Part shown: one piece after another, positions 7,896 through 56,599 of the stretch
How the letters are laid out: each line of letters opens with the position of its first letter
Position numbering within the stretch: position 1 is the stretch's first letter
DNA from: Candidatus Nomurabacteria bacterium
GTDB lineage: Bacteria; Patescibacteriota; Minisyncoccia; Phycocordibacterales; UBA9973
Reading direction: 5' to 3'
Length of the DNA stretch: 64,000 nt
Assembly: GCA_016199805.1 (NCBI GenBank)
Contig: JACQGC010000005.1
Span: 6,019 to 70,018 of the forward strand
Position numbers and translations under genes: made by a program
The notes under the pieces: model-generated
What the model was told of the DNA's origin: nothing
Seen by the model: the letters and a program-made list of their open reading frames with translations, nothing else
The model's database searches: none

Positions 7896-10800
7896 TCAAA
7901 AACTGGGTGTCTCCACGGGAACGCTTGCGGGATTGTCGGCTGGAGCGGTATCGTCTGGAACACTACCAGATACAACATTATCTGGAGTTGGAGTTAACGC
8001 AGGGTCTTGGGTTGGTAGAATGGGTTCTGGGGTTGGAAGTGAAAACGGCACCAAAGATGGGCTGGAAATTTTACTGCTAAAAGTCTTGGCGCTCTTTACC
8101 GCCAAAGCAATCCAGCTGAAACTGATGTTTTGTTTTGCTGTGTCTTTCAAAGTGATAGTAAAACCTTTTTCTGATTTATTAGTTACCAGATACTGCACAT
8201 TGTCTGCAAATAAACTATTTGTCGCTTCAGTTTGAGCATTTTTAATTGACTGAATTAGGGAAGCATCAGTTTCAGTATTTAGATTTTCCAACTGTGGGTC
8301 GGCATCGAGAGTAATAGTCGTGTTCACAATGGGTTGTTCTAAATATTCTTTATCAAAAACTATATCTACGGATTGATCTCCTTTATTTATTTTTGCAAAA
8401 CCGGCCGTATCTGTCGTAAAGTATGGTCTGCCAAAAAATACAGTATCACTCATAAACATCACCGCATCCTTGCCGGAGCTGATAGTATCCACCGTCAAAC
8501 CATTGGCAAATATTTGTGGTGTAATTATTTCCATTGAGGCAGCCACTCGGTCGGTAAAAATCTCGGACAAGTTTTGCATATTGGTTTTTTGATTCCGCAC
8601 CTTAATAAGGAAATCCAAGATTCTGGACTCTACTGTTGCGGGAGTATTGGAAAGAGTTGAAGTCAAACCGTCGGAAACAACCGGAGAAAGAGCCAAGGAA
8701 TCTGTGCTACTTCCATCAGCAGTTGATGGAGACGAAAGCCCATTTTGTGCTGTAGCTGTTACAGCATCCAAATCTTCCTGCATCAACATCTCAATAGATG
8801 CTCCGCTGTAATTTGCCAAATTTACAAACACTACCAATGTTCCGCATTTTGTATTTGGCAATTGACCCAAGCCCATAGATGGACAATCTTCCAATTTATT
8901 TGTGTCCATATTTTCCAGAGCCGTGCCTATTACCCTGCCGGCCTGTGTCGCCCGCATAGCATAACCCGGAATGCTGGAAGAAGTCAGATAATCCCCTGCT
9001 TTTATCGGGCCATTTTCCGTACTGAATCTTACCGGCACACGGCCAACGAGCGCTATCGGCACAGAATCCACAGTCTTTGAACCGGCCACAAAACCTGGAG
9101 CGGTGGAAACGACTCCGACTAAAGTATTTTGATATTGTCCCGTGGAACGCAAGACCCCTTGTGAATTGTTTGGGTCTACCATCACCACTTCTCCTTTGGT
9201 CAGACTTTCGGTTGATGTATAATTTTCCGCCAAATCGGCGCCACCGGAAAAGAATCCACCGTTGGTTGACGACATGATATTTCCGTCGGATGTCACACGC
9301 AAAATACTGAGCCCATTATTTTGTAAATTCATAAGGTCCATCCCATTTGTAATCTGGTACGAATTTACAGTCGGTAAAGATATATTACGATAACTATATG
9401 TTAAACCACTAGAAGAATTATAAACACCATTTAAGTTGAGACCGAATGTAGGAAAATCACGACGGAAATTTATTTCCACTTGAGCCCATTGTTCACCTCC
9501 GGCGTTTCCGATAGACCCTCCAGGTGAGCTTATACTATTCCAAGTAGCCACACCGAGAGCGGTCTGGGTCGCAGCCACTCGCGCTTCCATACGCACAAAC
9601 TGGTCCGGAGTTTGTTGCCAATCAAGTGTAGAATTTGAAGCAAGTGCCGGCACATTCATTTCTTCAGAAAGATATTGTCCATCAGCATACCAACCAGCAT
9701 CGTAAATATTGATAGCCTTGGACCCAGATGATCCTCCGAAAAGAGTAATAAATTTTCCATCTGGCCTTTGAAAAGAAAGGGCACCGTCACCCACGCCACC
9801 ACCGAGATACTGACCAGTGGTTGGGTCTGTCACCGAATCAGCAAAAGTTGTAATAACATTGTCAGCAATAGTTCCAACTAAGAAATATGGAGAGGTGTTA
9901 TTTACTCCACCAGCTATTGTTGTTCTATAAATATTACGTGCTGTTGTTCCGGTAGGACCAATAGTAACAGCAGTAAGACTTTCTTGTCCAAGCGTTGTAA
10001 GAGTACATGACTGTGTAGCAGATGGAGCAGAAAGTGGTGATTCAACACCGCCAATAACGTAAGTATATCTCCAGAAGTGTACACCGGTATTACATAAGTT
10101 AGATCCACCAGAAGCTGGAGCAGAAGAAGTAGGAGCTGGTGGCGCAGTATTAAACATTGTAGGTCCTACAGCCACAGTACCGACAGGAGCACCAACAGCA
10201 GAAGTTGCGCCACCCCAAGGGAAATAAATCTCAGTGAGCACATCATTGTTTAGAGCCAAGTTTCCTCCAACAATTAAAAACGTACCATCAGCTCTCGGAA
10301 TAACATGAGAGCCTCTTCCTAGCATTGCAGGAAAAGTTACACCCGCTGCTTCTGTACCGTTGTAAGGATTGACTATACCTGACAGAGTACCACGAGCATT
10401 TGCTGTAGCTTCTCCTCTTATTATTATCCAATACCCGTCTTGTCTTTGAAATGCGAATCCTCCAGATCCATTAGCTCCGCCAAGAACAGCTCCAAGAAAA
10501 AATGTTTTGGTGTTTGCATTATAAGTCATAGTAGCAGTAGATACAGTTCCAACAGCAGACCCTGCTATAACTTTATACATGTTGTTCATAGAACCCTGAA
10601 GCGGTATAGCAAACCCTCCTAAATTTGTAGCTGCTGTCTGTAAAGGACCCGCTGTCATAGTATTGCGAACTGGATCATAAAGAGATGTAGAAGTAGCGCC
10701 AGCACCAGGTAAAATAGTATAAGTGCCATCAACATTAAGAATCGTAAATGCACCACCAGATGGAGCAGTACCAACTATGGATGGACCGAGAGTAAAACGT

Positions 10801-13800
10801 GAACCAGAGGGGGCATATTGATCATAAATATTTGTCACAGCTGACCCTCCACCAAGCACTACTAAATATTTACCGTTGGGACGTCTAATAGCAAAACCTC
10901 CTGCACCTACTGTAGCAGTAGGCTTATCTCCAGTGGCTGTCTGGTTTATAAATGTTGATGTTGTAGAATCATATAGCTCAGCAGATCCTCCCGCTACTCC
11001 ACCATTTACCACCAAGAATGTTTTATCGTCACGAGCAATAACAAAAGTACCATAACCAGCAAGATTATTTAGAAACTGATGATCATTACCAAATGATCCC
11101 ATATAAAATCCTAAACCTGTGGCACCTCCAACTTGAGTCGTTGGCGTAATACGACCATAAGGAAGTGTGAGTTGATTATTGATTGATTCAACACGAGCAG
11201 ATTCACCGCGAGAAAGCATCGGACCGGAAGGCGTGAGCTGCGCAAATGCCGCACCGAGCGAAACATCCGTCGCTCCGTCAACATAAGAAGTTGTAGAGTT
11301 ATCGTTTAAAGTTGTAACTAAAAATGGAGTATCGGTGACAGCAAGCGCCGCGGCTGTACGATAAATTTTTCTGGCAGTTGTACCGGACGGACCAATTGGA
11401 ATATTTGTCAGAGTAACTTTATCTGTGCCACCAGCGCAAGAGGCAGTAGCACTAGCTCCTAGTTGCGACTCTGCTCCGTTGATAATAAAAGTAACAAACC
11501 AAAAATGGGCTCCAATAGTACAAGTACCTCCGCCCGCTGACTCTGTGGCTGTGGGCGCCACAGGCACTGTCGCCGCTACTGCGGTGTAGCTATCCGGAGT
11601 GCTAAAATCAAATCCTAATTTTTTAAATACGGCAGAATTGTCAATAGAATAATCAAACAAGGTTGGCGTCGTAAAATCATAACGAAGTACTGTCGTATTG
11701 TTCCCCGTCCATGTGCCACGATCATCTGCCAGCTTTTTCGGCATAGCGCGATTGAAGTGTACGGCAACCTTCACGCAATTTGCTCCGGACACAGCACGAA
11801 TATTATCTCCAGGGTTTTGAATTTCTTGCCACGAAGCGGCGGCGAGGGGTCCCGAACAACCGGAAGAATTCACGGCAGTTTTTACAAAAAATTGCATAGC
11901 TTTAAATGCGGTATTGGTGACTCCATTTCTGGCCGCCGCATACACAGCTTCCAGCTGAGCCGTCCAACGCAAAGTAGAACCAGTGCTAATATATGAATTT
12001 GAAATATCTTCCGACGTATACCAAGTCGTAGCCGGAGTGATAGAATATGTGGCACCAAGTGATGCATCAACTGTTGCATCGGAACAAGATGTCGTGGTGT
12101 TATCAGCAATACTACAAGAACCTGAACTTATTAATTTTGGCAATCCTGTATCCCCTGCTGTTGTGCGATAAATCTTGCGCGCTGTTGTAGCCGTACCACC
12201 TGGGCCAATTGGAATACCGGAGAGTGCTACCGTTCCGTTAGCTGCCGTACATGCGACGATGTTTGATTTCTGGCTCAATTCGGATTCCACTCCATTTGTT
12301 ACAAATGTCGTGTAATAAGAATGCAGTCCAGCATCACAGCCCGCACCAGATGAAGGAGTACCAGCAACCGGTGCCACAGGAAATGGATCATACATAGGCA
12401 TATTTGTACTGAAATTATTTGTGGCTTGGCTCGCATTACCGGTGATAATCTGCCATGTTCCATCTGTGCGCATTATTGAATGAGCACCAGCACCAATCGT
12501 AGACGGAGCAGTGCCACCAGTGGAAGTATAGGTCGCAAATGAGTCCGTGTCTTGACTATAAATCCACGCATTGGCCGTAGCCCCTCCACCTAAAATTAAA
12601 AACTTTCCATTTTGAAGCGGGATAGCGTGAGCCCCATCTCCCAAGGCAACCGTCGGGCCGTTGTTGGGACGGCAAGTCATAGTATTGGCTGACGGATCAT
12701 AAACAGCCGAAGAATTTATTCTTGAAAGAATGACATATTTACCATCTTGACGTTTAAGAGCCACCGAACCAAGACTATTTATTCCGCAAGTATTTGTAGC
12801 TTGGTTTCCATCAAGACTTGGCCCAGCGGAAGTAAATGCTCCTATTGTGGCATTTCCTGAATATGGATTATAAATATTTGTATTTGAAGTAGAACCTCCA
12901 TTTACTATGAGCGCACGTCCATCGGGCATGGGAAGTACGAGTGCTCCTGCTGCCCAAACACCTGCCGAAGCAGGTGGACCAAGTCCAAAAGTATTTGCCA
13001 CAGGATCAAATATTTGTGTGGTACCTACAGAAGTAGATGCGCCAATAGTCACGAGATATTTCCCATCTGGACGTTTATATGCTACAGTACCCGCCCCAGT
13101 GATGGCAATAGTCGTTCCAGGCCCAAGAGAACTTGGAACAGTACCCATCGTATCAATGTTAGTTGTAGTAGTTGTTGCACCAGTAGCTGTTCCACAGATA
13201 AGAGTATATTTACCGTCTGGTCTTGGAAGAGCTATTGATCCTACACCAACACCAGCAGTAGTTGCAGTATTACAAATAATTGATTGTGATGCAGTCATTG
13301 CACCTGTAACCGAATCATAAAGAGTGGTTGATGTCGCCCCTCCACCATGTACTATCAAGTATCTACCATTCGGACGCGTAAGAGCCAAGGCACCTGCACC
13401 CACGGCGACTGATGTCGTGGGTTGAGATGATGTCGTTATCGTACCCGTACCAGAGTTTGCCGGAATACCATCCGCCAGCTGTAAGCGTCCGCCAGTATTT
13501 AAAAGATTTGAACCTATTGTTCCCAAAGAAAAATCCGTAGCAGCAGTACGAACGATAGAAGAATCCGAACCATTGACGGTAAGTCCCCCATTTGAACCAA
13601 CGGTGAATCTGTCGGTACCGTTTTGATTTATATCAATAGCGTTGCCGGTGCCGGTGCTGTTGATGGACAGCCCAGCTCCGGTGCCAGCATTGGAGATAGT
13701 CAGTGCGTCAACAGCCCCGGCAGAAAGTTGGTCAACCTTCAGTGCATAGTTGGCAGTGGTTCCACCCGATACCGGATTTTGAAAAATCACCGAACCATCG

Positions 13801-14687
13801 GTGGAGCTTAAGGCAATCGTCACATTACCCCCATCAGTATCATTGTTGTAAGTTGTTTGTAAATCCGAACTGCCGCCGCCTGCCCCGCAACCGGCATCAG
13901 TCGTATTACATAAAACTTTTGTCGTACCGTTTTCATTCACTTTGTATTTATTGGCGCTGGAATCATACCAGATATCTCCAGCCGCTGCGCCGGAGGTGCC
14001 CGCCACGCCAGTCTTTAAGAAATCTCCGGTAGCAATTGTGGTTCTTCCAGAAGCGGAATCTAAGGTCAAACCACCAACGCCACCAGAAGAAACAGTCACT
14101 GCGCCGACTCCAGTGTAGGACAAAGCCGAAAGAAGTCCTGGAATAGTCAAAGCTCCTGAACTAAGAACTGGAATTTGATTACCGGTAGCGGATTGAGATG
14201 GAGTAAACCCCCCCACGGTGCCGGAATTGATAGAATACCCTGAAGAAACCACTTGTGGACGCGGAGTGAGAGATTCAAATGTAACACCGACGCAAGAACT
14301 GGCCACTTGAGCTGCCACTTGCACATCTACATATATAGTATTATTACTTTGAAAATCATAATCAAGCGTGTCTCCCCCGGTTGACACATCCCCAATCCCC
14401 GCGTTAAAAACTCCTTCACGAGTGAGGATGGTCATCGTTGACGGAGCACCCGTGGGCCAAACTTTGGACCCTGCCGTTGATGCATCATATAAAGAAAACT
14501 TATAACAATAGTTTGTGCCACTCGTGCCTCCGAGCAAAGCCCCGCTGGAATTTAAAAGTCTGCCTTGAAAACTAATAATTTTGGGTACCCCTGGCGCAGC
14601 ATAGGCAAAATTTATAAAAAAAGATACGACAAAAAAGCACGTTAAAATCCGTAAAATATTTTTATGTTTAGGATTGTTTTTTCCCAT
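7896..14687 (-). CDS. Giant (2263 aa) secreted surface protein. It has many Kelch/beta-propeller-like blades and a domain repeated four times.
   Basis: It has a signal peptide. It has at least 11 blade-like repeats of the form (R/K)PDGKY...GG. An internal roughly 60-aa domain containing TARKIYRT is repeated four times. It is a single uninterrupted 6.8-kb ORF. Confidence 0.7.
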
Positions 14688-14760: not shown

Positions 14761-15192
14761 TTACTTTTTCTTTTTTATTGAAGTGCTAGGGATTGAAGTC
14801 GGATTTATAGTCTGAGCTGGGGCAATGGTAGTGGCTTTGTCTCCGACATTTAGAGGCGCAACATTTAAAATTTTATTCAGAGAAACACTGTACAAGATAG
14901 CTTTCTTGGCTTGCGCGTATATCAGCACCTTATCTCCTTTCTCGGCTTGCAAAAAAAATGGCTGATCTTTCAATACTTCAGGGTCGGACACAGTGGCGAC
15001 AGTCGGAGTCTCCCCTTGTGGAAGAACGATTATTTTTGAAACTTTCTCCACGAGGCTAGCTGTCTCTTTTTGAGCCACTGCTTGAGGATTTTGTTTTGCG
15101 ACATAAAGCTGATAAGAAAAATATCCGGCGAGAAACAAAGCCACCACTGCCACAGTGGAAATTATGAGAAATACTTTTTGTATTCTTAGCAT
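14761..15192 (-). CDS. Small membrane-anchored hypothetical protein.
   Basis: The ORF has an N-terminal TM helix and a Lys-rich C-terminus. Confidence 0.45.
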
Positions 15193-15255: not shown

Positions 15256-15283
15256 TTGACAGAAATATAAAAAGTGTTATACT
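15256..15283 (+). promoter_or_regulatory. Near-consensus sigma70-like promoter motif (TTGACA-N16-TATACT). It points antisense into the 3' end of the reverse transcriptase gene.
   Basis: TTGACA sits at 15256-15261 and TATACT at 15278-15283. No plus-strand gene follows for about 1 kb. Confidence 0.25.
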
Positions 15284-15302: not shown

Positions 15303-16352
15303 TTATTCACTAACCCACAAATAAAAATAATTTTTTATTTTTATAGAAAATTTGTAAGCATCTGTGTGTGAAAGCACTCCTAGGTATGATGCTAAGGTCG
15401 CTTTGATTTTGTCTTTGCCAACTTCCCCTCTTCGGTATGCTTCAATTTTATCTTCAAATTTTCTGATAATCCTCTTTTTCGTTCTTTTACGAATGAGAGT
15501 ATGGGTAGAAAAGATAATATTCCCCAAAAAATCTATGCCCTTGATATAACTTAATATCTCAACTTTTTCCGGATGTAAATGTAAAAATAAAGAATCTCGT
15601 AAAAATATATTTACGGAGTCTAAAATATGGAGTAAATAATCTCTATCTCTTGAAACAATCACAAAATCGTCAGTGTAGCGCGCATAATAACGAACTTTGA
15701 GTTTGTGTTTAATAAATTGGTCAAATTCATTCATATAGATATTCGCAAAAATCTGCGAGGTGAGATTGCCTATAGGCACACCCTTTCTTCCCAATAAATC
15801 TGACGCAGAACTTGTATAACTCTCGATTATGTTTTCCAGAAGCCAAATTATATTCGGATCTTTAATCTTCTTATTTAAGATTGCCAACAAAATATCGTGG
15901 TCAATTGAATCAAAAAACTTACGCACGTCACACTTGAGCACATAGCATGTCTTTGTATTGTTTCTGCTTTCTTTTCGCAACATACCTCGCAAAGTTTCGA
16001 TCCCCTTATGAGTCCCCTTGCCTATTCGGCAAGAAAACGAGTTGGAAATAAATGTTGGTTCAAATATTGGGTTGAGTATATTAAAAATTGCATGGTGGAG
16101 GACTCGGTCTCTGACGGTGGCTTTATGTATATGCCTCAATTTCGGATCTGATATATAAAATCCTTCGTACTCGCCGTGTTTATAGCTTTTGTTTTTTAAA
16201 TCTCGAGATAGTTTGAAAATATTACTCTCAAGCTCACTCTCAAACATCAATACATCTATTTTCGATCCCTTTCCGTGTTTAAATTCTTTCCACGCTAAAA
16301 ACAAAGCCTCGGGTTGAACAATCTTATTAAATAAATCTTTGTGAATAATCAT
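15303..16352 (-). CDS. Reverse transcriptase of the diversity-generating retroelement (DGR) type.
   Basis: RT motifs are present: the LFxxIxxxxAxxAWKEFKHGKGSK N-terminus, the IGNLTSQIFANIYMNEFDQF motif 4 with the DGR-specific SQ, and the YARYTDDFVI YxDD box. It is about 350 aa and has no maturase or endonuclease domain. The start was chosen at the internal Met (16352). Confidence 0.85.
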   Translation of the reverse strand: MIIHKDLFNKIVQPEALFLAWKEFKHGKGSKIDVLMFESELESNIFKLSRDLKNKSYKHGEYEGFYISDPKLRHIHKATVRDRVLHHAIFNILNPIFEPTFISNSFSCRIGKGTHKGIETLRGMLRKESRNNTKTCYVLKCDVRKFFDSIDHDILLAILNKKIKDPNIIWLLENIIESYTSSASDLLGRKGVPIGNLTSQIFANIYMNEFDQFIKHKLKVRYYARYTDDFVIVSRDRDYLLHILDSVNIFLRDSLFLHLHPEKVEILSYIKGIDFLGNIIFSTHTLIRKRTKKRIIRKFEDKIEAYRRGEVGKDKIKATLASYLGVLSHTDAYKFSIKIKNYFYLWVSE

Positions 16353-16706
16353 ATGAATCAAAATGATGTGCCAGTACTTAATAAATCGTATGAATTGTAT
16401 AAGTTGTTTCACGAATATCGCAAGGTTGTTCCAAAGCAAGACAGATTTACCATATATGAACGAAGTGAGCATGTAATGCTGGGGATTATAGAACTTCTGC
16501 TTGAAGCGAGTTACGGCGGCAAAGAAAGAAAGCTAGTCACCCTAGAAAAAGCCAGCGTCAAACTCAATGTGCTCCGATTCCTGATTCGCATAATGAAAGA
16601 AACAAAAACATTTGATATGAAAAAATACATTTCACTGGAACTACTTGTTGATGAAATCGGACGAATGATTGGAGGATGGATACGTTCGCTCAATCTCAAT
16701 AAATAG
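16353..16706 (+). CDS. avd: Avd-like accessory variability determinant, a four-helix-bundle protein of the 23S rRNA IVS protein family.
   Basis: It is about 118 aa. The helical pattern YELYKLFHEY...PKQDRFTIYERSEHVMLGIIE...LEKASVKLNVLRFLIRIMKE...ISLELLVDEIGRMIGGWIRSL is typical of the Avd/IVS family. It is divergent from the RT gene, and the two start codons are back-to-back (CAT|ATG). Confidence 0.7.
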   Translation: MNQNDVPVLNKSYELYKLFHEYRKVVPKQDRFTIYERSEHVMLGIIELLLEASYGGKERKLVTLEKASVKLNVLRFLIRIMKETKTFDMKKYISLELLVDEIGRMIGGWIRSLNLNK

Positions 16707-16710
16707 CTTC

Positions 16711-16750
16711 ACACAAAAGGTATCCAAAAAGGATACCTTTTGTGTTTTAC
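16711..16750 (+). terminator. Strong hairpin (15-bp stem, AAAAA loop) followed by TTTT. It is the likely avd terminator. It also lies in the spacer between TR and RT on the other strand.
   Basis: ACACAAAAGGTATCC-AAAAA-GGATACCTTTTGTGT is followed by TTTAC, directly after the avd stop codon. Confidence 0.55.
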
Positions 16751-16762
16751 AAAAAGAGACTT

Positions 16763-16891
16763 CGGGAGGAAGCCGGACGCCGAGCCAAAGTTGTCGTTGG
16801 CATTGTCGACCGTGTTCGTGTCAAACTTGAGCTTGCCGTCGTTCCAGTTGAGGTACGGAGCGTGATCGAAGCGAACAGAGGAATCCGGATT
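16763..16891 (-). repeat. DGR template repeat (TR).
   Basis: This 129-bp segment is near-identical to 17300..17428. The two differ at 18 positions, and all 18 are adenines in this copy (read on the minus strand). In the target frame this copy contains multiple AAC/AAT codons. Confidence 0.85.
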
Positions 16892-17186
16892 CTGCCTTTA
16901 TCCATCTATGGCACCGGAACTTGAAAGCTTTGCAAAGCAAAATGCAATCTTGCTCCTGAATTTAACTTCACAACACTTATTTTTTAAGTAAGTTTGTGTT
17001 GGGTAAAGACAAGCAGTATCTCTTCATAGTAACGCTCTTTTTGCAACCGTAGTCGCAAAAATTCTGGCTAGTTTCTTTGTGAAAAGAAAGAGTTCGGCGA
17101 TGGCAATCCATAAACTGCCATACATGAGCTTAGACTCAAGGTTAAGTATATTAAAAGTAAATTTAAAAATCAATATGAAATGAAAT

Positions 17187-17225
17187 CAGGGCTACCCACA
17201 TTGTGTTGTGGATAACCCTGATATT
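17187..17225 (-). terminator. Hairpin about 70 nt downstream of the DGR target gene stop. It has T-rich flanks on both sides. It is a candidate terminator or homing-associated structure.
   Basis: CAGGGCTACCCACATTGTGTTGTGGATAACCCTG is an imperfect palindrome. It has a T-run on the plus side and a T-rich tail on the minus side. Confidence 0.35.
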
Positions 17226-17290: not shown

Positions 17291-18184
17291 TCACTTCTGC
17301 GGGAGGAAGCCGGACGCCGAGCCAAAGTAGCCGAAGGCACCGCCGACCGCGCCCGTGCCAAACTTGAGCATGCCGTCGAGCCAGTGGAGGTACGGAGCGA
17401 GACCGAAGCGAACAGAGGAAGCCGGATTATCAAACTCTTCGCCGGGCAAGTCCATGTGAAGTTGCTCCCAGCGAACGAAACGCTCCGGATGAGTGAGTAT
17501 GATAGCACCTCCAATAACGGAAGTGGCGCCGAACTCATTGCGTACGAAGACTTCGTGTGCGCGCCGAGTGGAACGTCCGCGGTGACGCATTCCGAGCTGG
17601 AGAGCCGCGACGAGGATATCGCCATTGCCCTGTTGTTCGGAGAGCGTTTCGATTGCCATTGCCGTCCGCGAATGAACGCGTAAACGGTCCATTTGACTCG
17701 CGCGGTAATTGTAGAACGAGCGCGACGCGGCAATTTTCGAGAGAACGGCGCCAGTTGCAATGGCGCGCGGAAAAGCGAACCAACCCACAAACGGCAACGC
17801 GTCTTCCGGAACGAACGACTTCAGCTCTGGTCGGATTTGTGCATACGCCAGCGCAGAGTCTGGATTGAGGTTAAAAACCTCCGCCAGGTATAAAATCTGG
17901 TCACAGATGGACTTCGGACCCTTGTACTCTGGCGGGTACGTGTAGGAGGATGCGACCTCCTCGCTTGCGTACTGGTTCGGGCTGCCGTATTTACGCACGA
18001 GATCTCGGACGAAGTCGCGAACGTCGTTCATGGCTCCCGTGCCGTTGTCGATGAACCGAACGCCACCCTCGTACGAGTCGAGATATTTTTCGACCACGAG
18101 AGGAACCTGCGCTTGAATCATTCCTGTAATATGCTCACGCTGTTCCGGCGACGCCGGGGCGGCTTCTGACAACATCGTTTTCAT
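17291..18184 (-). CDS. DGR target protein (297 aa). It has no signal peptide. The variable repeat encodes its C-terminal about 43 residues, a probable C-type-lectin / FGE-like variable fold.
   Basis: An AAGGAG RBS sits 6 nt before the ATG. The gene is GC-rich (about 58%), in contrast to the genome. The C-terminus ...NPASSVRFGLAPYLHWLDGMLKFGTGAVGGAFGYFGSASGFLPQK is encoded by the VR. The stop codon lies 7 nt past the VR. Confidence 0.75.
   Translation of the reverse strand: MKTMLSEAAPASPEQREHITGMIQAQVPLVVEKYLDSYEGGVRFIDNGTGAMNDVRDFVRDLVRKYGSPNQYASEEVASSYTYPPEYKGPKSICDQILYLAEVFNLNPDSALAYAQIRPELKSFVPEDALPFVGWFAFPRAIATGAVLSKIAASRSFYNYRASQMDRLRVHSRTAMAIETLSEQQGNGDILVAALQLGMRHRGRSTRRAHEVFVRNEFGATSVIGGAIILTHPERFVRWEQLHMDLPGEEFDNPASSVRFGLAPYLHWLDGMLKFGTGAVGGAFGYFGSASGFLPQK
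17300..17428 (-). repeat. DGR variable repeat (VR) at the 3' end of the target gene.
   Basis: It is the 129-bp cognate of the TR. All 18 mismatches correspond to A in the TR. The last 27 nt (minus sense) contain no adenine and are identical between the two copies, making this an IMH-like GC-rich end. Confidence 0.85.
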
Positions 18185-18245
18185 AGTAGTCTCCTTGACC
18201 TTTTCCCCGATTCGCCCGGGTACTGTTTTGCGGCTTATCTTTATG

Positions 18246-18295
18246 AGACGAGCTTTTTAGGGCTTATTTTTAAGCACCAAAAAGCTCGTCTCTAA
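18246..18295 (-). terminator. Perfect 14-bp inverted repeat (GAGACGAGCTTTTT...AAAAAGCTCGTCTC) between the thioredoxin-like gene and the DGR target gene. It is a probable bidirectional terminator.
   Basis: Seen directly in the sequence. The stem includes the U-tracts. Confidence 0.4.

Positions 18296-54457: not shown

Positions 54458-56599
<2,142 letters not shown>

Follow-up and report, generated by a model that had tools for sequence, protein, structure and literature searches.

The 64,000-nt stretch of contig JACQGC010000005.1 analysed here (assembly GCA_016199805.1, Candidatus Nomurabacteria bacterium), referred to below as the window, carries a complete and intact diversity-generating retroelement (DGR). 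All four of its components, the reverse transcriptase (RT), the accessory protein Avd, the template repeat (TR) and the variable repeat (VR), are present and the open reading frames (ORFs) are intact. The element is a published B3 DGR, in the order target gene with VR, TR, avd on the opposite strand, and RT. This is the standard layout of Patescibacteria, or candidate phyla radiation (CPR) bacteria, and it is ordinary. Architecture B3, written TR-(avd)-RT with parentheses for the reverse strand, makes up 90% of the CPR DGR set (Wu et al. 2018, Nucleic Acids Res 46:11, PMC5758913). The layout that had drawn attention to the locus is thus already known, and what is added here, a leader RNA upstream of the TR and a terminator reading of the hairpin that follows it, is modest on both counts. 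Concerning expression, the sequence features point, with a probability of roughly 0.55-0.6, to three kinds of transcript: one for the target gene, a discrete TR RNA that would end at the hairpin, and divergent transcripts for RT and avd.

A complete DGR of architecture B3

The element is defined by an ungapped 132-nt direct repeat on the minus strand whose two copies are 86% identical (coordinates of all features are given in Table 1). All 19 mismatches between the copies (19/19) fall at adenines of the minus-strand TR; the first copy was assigned as TR and the second as VR because A stands in the first copy at every difference. The defining features of a DGR were seen together at the locus: a TR/VR pair with differences confined to A, an RT beside the TR, and a VR that ends the target gene, the TGA stop of the target ORF coming 3 nt past the VR end. 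The avd product matches the Pfam family bAvd at 2.6e-17 (63.7 bits for a curated cut-off of 40). It is basic, with a pI of 9.55, the mean Avd pI being 9.5 (Wu et al. 2018). No Pfam match was obtained for the target protein (297 aa).

The 64-kb window contains a single copy each of RT, Avd, TR and VR. TR and RT lie on the minus strand, avd lies between them on the plus strand and there is no further accessory gene, which is the composition of B3. The original prediction, made from the sequence of the window, had placed target, VR, TR and RT on the minus strand and an Avd-like ORF on the plus strand between TR and RT, and every one of these components was found there; the single Avd of the window also leaves no better candidate on the minus strand. 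Its statement that avd, TR and the RT gene brt are co-directional in the Bordetella phage BPP-1 agrees with the published architecture B1. The same prediction had described the layout as unusual. This description must be abandoned, given the match to B3 among the catalogued Patescibacteria architectures, the 90% share of B3 in the CPR set and the recurrence of the same layout in 78 of 80 RT relatives.

The head-to-head junction is conserved in relatives

Relatives were collected by an RT search over one genome per species, which gave 80 loci, all from metagenome-assembled genomes (MAGs) and nearly all labelled Patescibacteria/CPR. Their RTs are 47-68% identical to that of the window and the great majority of the loci have adenine-biased TR/VR pairs. 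A reversed avd stands directly upstream of the RT, head-to-head, in the 78 loci just mentioned, the other two being cut at a contig end, and the Avd homologues encoded at this place and in this orientation are 27-82% identical to the window protein. In the 58 loci where adenine-biased VR differences identified a TR, the TR shares the strand of the RT, and 4-71 nt separate its end from the avd stop. Head-to-head placement of a reversed avd is therefore conserved throughout the clade.

The junction itself is equally constant. Among relatives whose alignment starts at residue 1, the codon homologous to the RT start at 16352 is ATG without exception (42/42), and 32 of these relatives have no alternative start between this ATG and the preceding in-frame stop. 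Since the ATG is kept in relatives, usually without an earlier start, the RT begins at 16352, as originally predicted. The upstream Met at 16472 was rejected as an initiation site: judging from the start codons of the relatives, it belongs to an accidental extension of the ORF. Among the 48 closest loci, 44 have RT and avd start codons spaced by -2 (overlapping CATG) to +15 nt. The CATATG that had been singled out in the window does read as described, with the RT ATG at 16350-16352 and the avd ATG at 16353-16355. Any pair of ATGs that abut on opposite strands gives this hexamer, which represents just one value of a conserved tight junction.

These comparisons decide whether the reversed avd could be a lineage-specific inversion, a misassembly or the mark of a decayed element, which would make the layout aberrant and the element possibly non-functional. 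The DGRs of Bordetella and Legionella and most non-CPR DGRs are co-directional, unlike this locus, and would speak for such an explanation. It is nevertheless scarcely credible, and the comparison with relatives refutes it: the arrangement recurs in 78 MAG contigs, independent of one another and drawn from many candidate phyla, the junction geometry is conserved, every ORF is intact, and the purely adenine-directed differences between TR and VR are suggestive of activity.

A further observation concerns avd in 27 distant relatives (among loci L047-L080; RT about 47-52% identical). Their avd contains a run of 7-11 C (avd sense) located a few codons past an ATG adjoining the RT start (e.g. L050:4954-4963, L066:4953-4963 and L076:4572-4582). 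In 24 of the 27 assemblies, this ATG and the conserved avd body are in different reading frames; removal of a single C from L050 would bring them into frame. Such a run could allow slipped-strand or transcriptional-slippage control of Avd, and hence of DGR activity. Other possible explanations are translation from a TTG that directly follows the run in 9 loci, and a homopolymer assembly error.

A structured leader upstream of the TR

Alignment of the 110 nt upstream of the TR revealed a conserved block with compensatory changes. Of the 16 pairs proposed by RNAalifold, 11 had double-sided changes. When a 20-pair structure was evaluated on 20 sequences, 92.5% of cells were paired, compared with 26-55% with slid partners; 14 pairs showed double-sided changes and none of 500 shuffles reached the observed covariation score. 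A larger alignment of 60 sequences, which was fitted to a covariance model and hence favours the structure, gave double-sided changes at 18 of 19 pairs, with 229 such cells for at most 62 in slid controls and about 91% of cells paired. The strength of this covariation argues that the leader is real.

The covariance model finds exactly one match per locus, on the RT strand only and just upstream of the TR. Over 20 of the loci matched at E < 1e-6 were not part of the seed, and the window leader scores 82.7 bits. G-U pairs are frequent, as expected of an RNA made from the RT strand. A second match in the window (54677-54750; 14.7 bits, E = 0.12) falls inside a 712-aa ORF and was taken as chance. 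In the window, one helix is formed by C16958/G16914 with 16956-16952/16920-16916, and a further helix by 16941-16937/16933-16929; for the helix 16949-16946/16926-16923, only two of the four pairs form. In the last helix, UGGA at 16904-16901 pairs with UCCG at 16889-16886, inside the first TR bases, and this pairing ties the leader to the template.

Rfam 15 holds no family for the leader or for the hairpin, as searched with the window and 10 relatives; matches to CRISPR-DR63 and to miRNA families were discarded as chance hairpin matches. No earlier description of the leader was found in the DGR literature covered, which did not include the study of CPR DGRs by Paul et al. (2017, Nat Microbiol).

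The hairpin between TR and avd

The perfect 15-bp stem at 16711-16745 was correctly noticed in the original prediction. It begins 4 nt past the avd TAG stop and lies 14-17 nt from the end of TR/VR homology, not 18 nt as first given. The 111-nt piece 16690-16800 folds with more stability than its shuffles (z = -4.4 for the minus strand and -4.1 for the plus strand). Of the 37 loci whose gap from TR to avd stop measures 30 nt or more, 35 have an unbroken stem of 9 bp or longer in it and 30 have one of 11 bp or longer; random windows of the same loci contain such stems in 8% and 1.7% of cases, respectively. RNAalifold returned no consensus pairs for the post-TR region and the hairpins are not alignable by sequence; they were compared instead by folding each locus separately. 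Their position is conserved and their loops measure 3-8 nt. Because the stem sequences differ between loci, it is the structure rather than the sequence that is kept. No stable hairpin is predicted in nine distant loci whose TR ends 6-9 nt from the avd stop.

A hairpin followed by a T-tract was recorded for 42 of 58 loci (72%) when read in the TR sense, for 22 of 58 when read in the avd sense and for 3% of background windows, under a rule that lets the A/T-rich lower stem count as the U-tract (sub-stem rule). By this rule the window hairpin is flagged on both strands, with the core GGUAUCC/GGAUACC followed by UUUUGUGU. These counts suggest that the hairpin is terminator-like mainly in the TR sense and that the TR would be made as its own short RNA rather than as an antisense transcript through avd.

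The hairpin as part of the DGR RNA has a published precedent: putative Avd-binding stem-loops were reported just after the TR in 207 of 278 avd-containing DGRs, CPR included, and Table S3 of that study lists long CPR hairpins as putative Avd-binding stem-loops, noting their overlap with avd (Handa et al. 2024, bioRxiv 10.1101/2023.10.23.563531). Avd binding to the stem-loop was demonstrated for BPP-1 only. There, flipped-out bases and the tetraloop contact the Avd pentamer; the window stem is without bulges. The dual role that had been proposed for the hairpin, as avd terminator and as structured element of the TR RNA, is reasonable: its reading as an Avd stem-loop is in print and it is terminator-like by the sub-stem rule, even if the standard scan was silent.

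The trailer that joins the TR to the hairpin is conserved in relatives though it is non-coding. In the window, base pairing is possible between its GAAGUC and the GGCUUC found at the 3' end of the TR.

Transcription and the template RNA

DGRs with components on different strands require at least two transcription units (Wu et al. 2018). In the arrangement proposed here, the target gene would form a unit of its own, with promoter, Shine-Dalgarno sequence and terminator. The TR would be made as a discrete non-coding RNA composed of leader, TR, a trailer of about 15 nt and the hairpin. As an intrinsic terminator, the hairpin would stop transcription in the TR sense and, to a lesser degree, that of avd from the opposite direction. 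The same stem-loop would probably also be a docking site for Avd, as proposed for other DGRs. RT and avd would be expressed divergently from the CATATG junction. Since neither has a Shine-Dalgarno sequence of the type found at the target gene, each promoter would have to be located within the coding sequence of the other gene, unless the mRNAs are leaderless; by eye, the leaderless geometry did not suit the window and was set aside. As in the Bordetella phage system, the RT-Avd complex would copy the TR with adenine-specific errors and the cDNA would replace the VR. A chemistry like that of BPP-1 is indicated by the adenine-specific pattern and by the pairing of RT with Avd; the organisation of the template RNA probably differs.

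Several points weigh against this arrangement. A search for sigma-70-type promoters gave none that is conserved, whether for RT, for avd or for the TR RNA; promoters embedded in RT or avd have no position common to more than 5 of 40 loci, and the weak matches in the window, such as 16423-16394 at 9/12, occur at chance level (7 found, 6.0 expected). The standard terminator scan flagged the 15-bp hairpin on neither strand, with only 3 T in the tails after the full stem. The avd stop codon and the Lys-rich C-terminal codons opposite account for some of the T-richness in the TR sense. Finally, an RNA ending at the hairpin leaves about 50 nt after the TR when Bordetella needs 140 nt, so that the priming site is unexplained.

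The last point is where the chief competing explanation begins. In BPP-1, the 140 nt after the TR are essential and hold the Avd-binding stem-loop, a primer strand, a cPRT-stop strand, a thumb ring and an RT-binding stem. TR and RT could accordingly share one minus-strand transcript as in BPP-1, the hairpin acting as Avd-binding stem-loop only and the primer, cPRT-stop and RT-binding elements lying in antisense avd, where the transcript may also regulate avd. For such read-through speak the BPP-1 requirement itself, the failure to find an independent RT promoter, and Table S3 of Handa et al. (2024), which predicts CPR cPRT-stop duplexes whose downstream strand overlaps avd. Moreover, the window leader GAUGGAUA can pair with the antisense-avd UAUCCAUC, and GAUGGA with UUCAUC, the latter pairing being formed in about 91% of loci. 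The complementarity does not rise above shuffled or permuted controls. For the 130 nt after the hairpin in 37 loci, mean z relative to shuffles was -0.11 with a 60-nt query spanning the TR 5' boundary (the last 50 nt before the TR and its initial 10 nt) and +0.07 with the TR 3' end, long-range pairing negatives of this sort having limited power. GAUGGA/UUCAUC was the best 6-bp match in a column-wise comparison of the leader with antisense avd on a codon-based avd alignment, with 0.909 of cells paired, which is not above the 0.900 of locus-permuted controls; because permuted loci give 90%, it reflects two conserved motifs and not covariation. The best leader/antisense-avd matches scatter in position between loci, and pairing of leader with trailer was null, without covariation. 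The 621-nt minus-strand RNA 16920-16300, folded as the original prediction had suggested, has no excess stability (z = -1.6) and only the hairpin stands out in it; for spacer pairing of the BPP-1 type, with the TR 3' end or with TR-upstream sequence, only short conserved matches within chance were found. In addition, the antisense region is constrained by avd coding, and the TR-sense terminator features occur in the 72% of loci given above. Taken with the terminator-like hairpin, the null pairing tests speak for a TR RNA whose 3' end is at that hairpin, and read-through, although possible, is doubtful. The original view that a TR-RT transcript would have to run antisense through avd is likewise left unsupported, with TR-sense terminator features in 42 of 58 loci and no signal of functional RNA elements in antisense avd.

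At the other extreme, the hairpin could be a plain terminator of two convergent units, outside the DGR ribonucleoprotein (RNP), and the leader a promoter or 5'-UTR element or a regulatory RNA outside the reverse-transcription machinery. The stems are indeed long, perfect and unbulged with variable loops, compared with an 11-bp Avd stem with flipped-out bases and a UNCG loop in BPP-1, and no stable hairpin is predicted in the nine distant loci with a short TR-avd gap. This explanation is improbable in view of the stem-loop that follows the TR directly in 207 of 278 avd-containing DGRs and of the leader helix that pairs with the first TR bases. A discrete TR RNA with a hairpin shared between termination and Avd docking remains the preferred reading. 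A bolder extension of it would make the B3 template RNA a self-contained non-coding RNA (leader, TR, trailer of about 15 nt and terminator hairpin), unlike that of Bordetella, with the docking and positioning elements of the BPP-1 3' spacer moved 5' and priming possibly from the hairpin-terminated 3' end; this we regard as speculative and rather unlikely in its full form.

Features of the locus and its surroundings

Table 1. Components of the DGR and associated sequence features in the window (positions in nt from the start of the window; -, minus strand; +, plus strand)
Feature	Position	Strand	Basis and remarks
DGR reverse transcriptase, 349 aa	15303-16352	-	Pfam RVT_1 1.2e-26; YTDD and IGNLTSQ motifs in the translation
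CATATG junction, RT ATG (-) abutting avd ATG (+)	16350-16355		Read from sequence
avd, 117 aa, convergent with TR and divergent from RT	16353-16706	+	Pfam bAvd PF22296
Perfect 15-bp hairpin, 5-nt loop	16711-16745 (arms 16711-16725, 16731-16745)		A/T-rich base, core GGTATCC/GGATACC, TTTTGTGT after core on both strands
Short trailer with conserved motif CCCGAAGTCTCT	16746-16765	-	Alignments; close relatives CCGAAGTC(T/A)CTCC, distant relatives CGCAACTCTCTTC
Template repeat (TR)	16760-16891	-	Repeat alignment, A-specific differences
Conserved structured RNA leader, about 90 nt, immediately 5' of TR	16886-16978	-	Alignment, RNAalifold, covariance model
16-bp hairpin with T-rich tail, about 70 nt downstream of VR	17185-17222	-	Terminator-like site in scan
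DGR target gene, 297 aa	17291-18184	-	ORF; AAGGAG ribosome-binding site before ATG
Variable repeat (VR)	17297-17428	-	3' end of target gene; 132 nt, 86% identical to TR
Promoter-like TTGACA/TATACT for target gene, 11/12 matches	18364-18335	-	Promoter scan

The hairpin downstream of the VR is likely the terminator of the target gene and possibly, by analogy, the counterpart of the inverted repeat that follows the IMH in BPP-1. A second long hairpin near the target, with 22-nt arms (18245-18292), is situated between the target promoter and the gene upstream of it. The target body differs in composition from the rest of the element: its G+C content is 56% in the window versus 35-37% for RT and avd, and among relatives the mean difference is 14 points, exceeding 5 points in 47 of 54 loci. 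The target G+C was measured over the 600 nt upstream of the VR, where DGR mutagenesis should not act.

Just beyond the RT stop, a promoter-like site on the plus strand (15256-15283; TTGACA, 16 nt, TATACT with an upstream TG; 11/12) points antisense into RT and toward avd, about 1 kb away; it may be a chance occurrence in AT-rich DNA. About 600 nt beyond the RT lies a 2263-aa ORF (7896-14687, minus strand), rich in Gly/Thr/Ser/Ala repeats and with an N-terminal hydrophobic segment; it probably encodes a large surface protein. A 143-aa ORF (14761-15192) separates it from the RT. The large ORF is not a DGR target, as it has no match to the TR.

Comparison with known DGRs

With respect to the B3 elements of Wu et al. 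(2018), the locus has the same order, the same orientation and the same lineage, its closest RT relatives here being Patescibacteria MAGs, and in layout there is no difference. A published default layout needs no new explanation, and CPR bacteria hold a large share of known DGRs. What goes beyond the B3 description is the near-zero spacing of the start codons, the terminator-like hairpin after the TR and the structured leader. The hairpin belongs to the same class of long hairpins, located 1-20 nt after the TR, as the stem-loops of Handa et al. (2024), one of which (GAGAAAUAUCCUCCCGAGUGGAGGAUAUUUCUU, Table S3) is the hairpin of locus L039 among the relatives. In contrast to the present analysis, that study discussed no terminator function and considered only 40 nt upstream of the TR. 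The hairpin also resembles the bidirectional intrinsic terminators of convergent genes, with an A-tract, a GC-containing stem and a T-tract that read the same on both strands, placed between TR and avd. It departs from them in that one of the converging units is the template RNA for reverse transcription, and termination is here a prediction.

The comparison with BPP-1 (mtd-avd-TR-brt, architecture B1) is the most instructive. Both systems combine an RT with Avd and carry the VR at the 3' end of the target, and the adenine-specific transfer from TR to VR of BPP-1 is predicted here as well; in both, TR and VR have a GC-rich 3' segment in common and a stem-loop occurs shortly after the TR. In BPP-1, however, avd is co-directional and upstream of the TR, and a 140-nt non-coding spacer separates TR from brt, whereas in the present locus the TR is only about 55 nt away from the stop of the convergent avd and has about 90 nt of conserved structure on its upstream side. 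The RNA elements for priming and processivity of the BPP-1 type are without an obvious home in B3 because the convergent avd occupies the 3' side of the TR. The hairpin and the leader are testable candidates for RNP assembly in the most abundant class of DGRs, of possible interest to DGR specialists.

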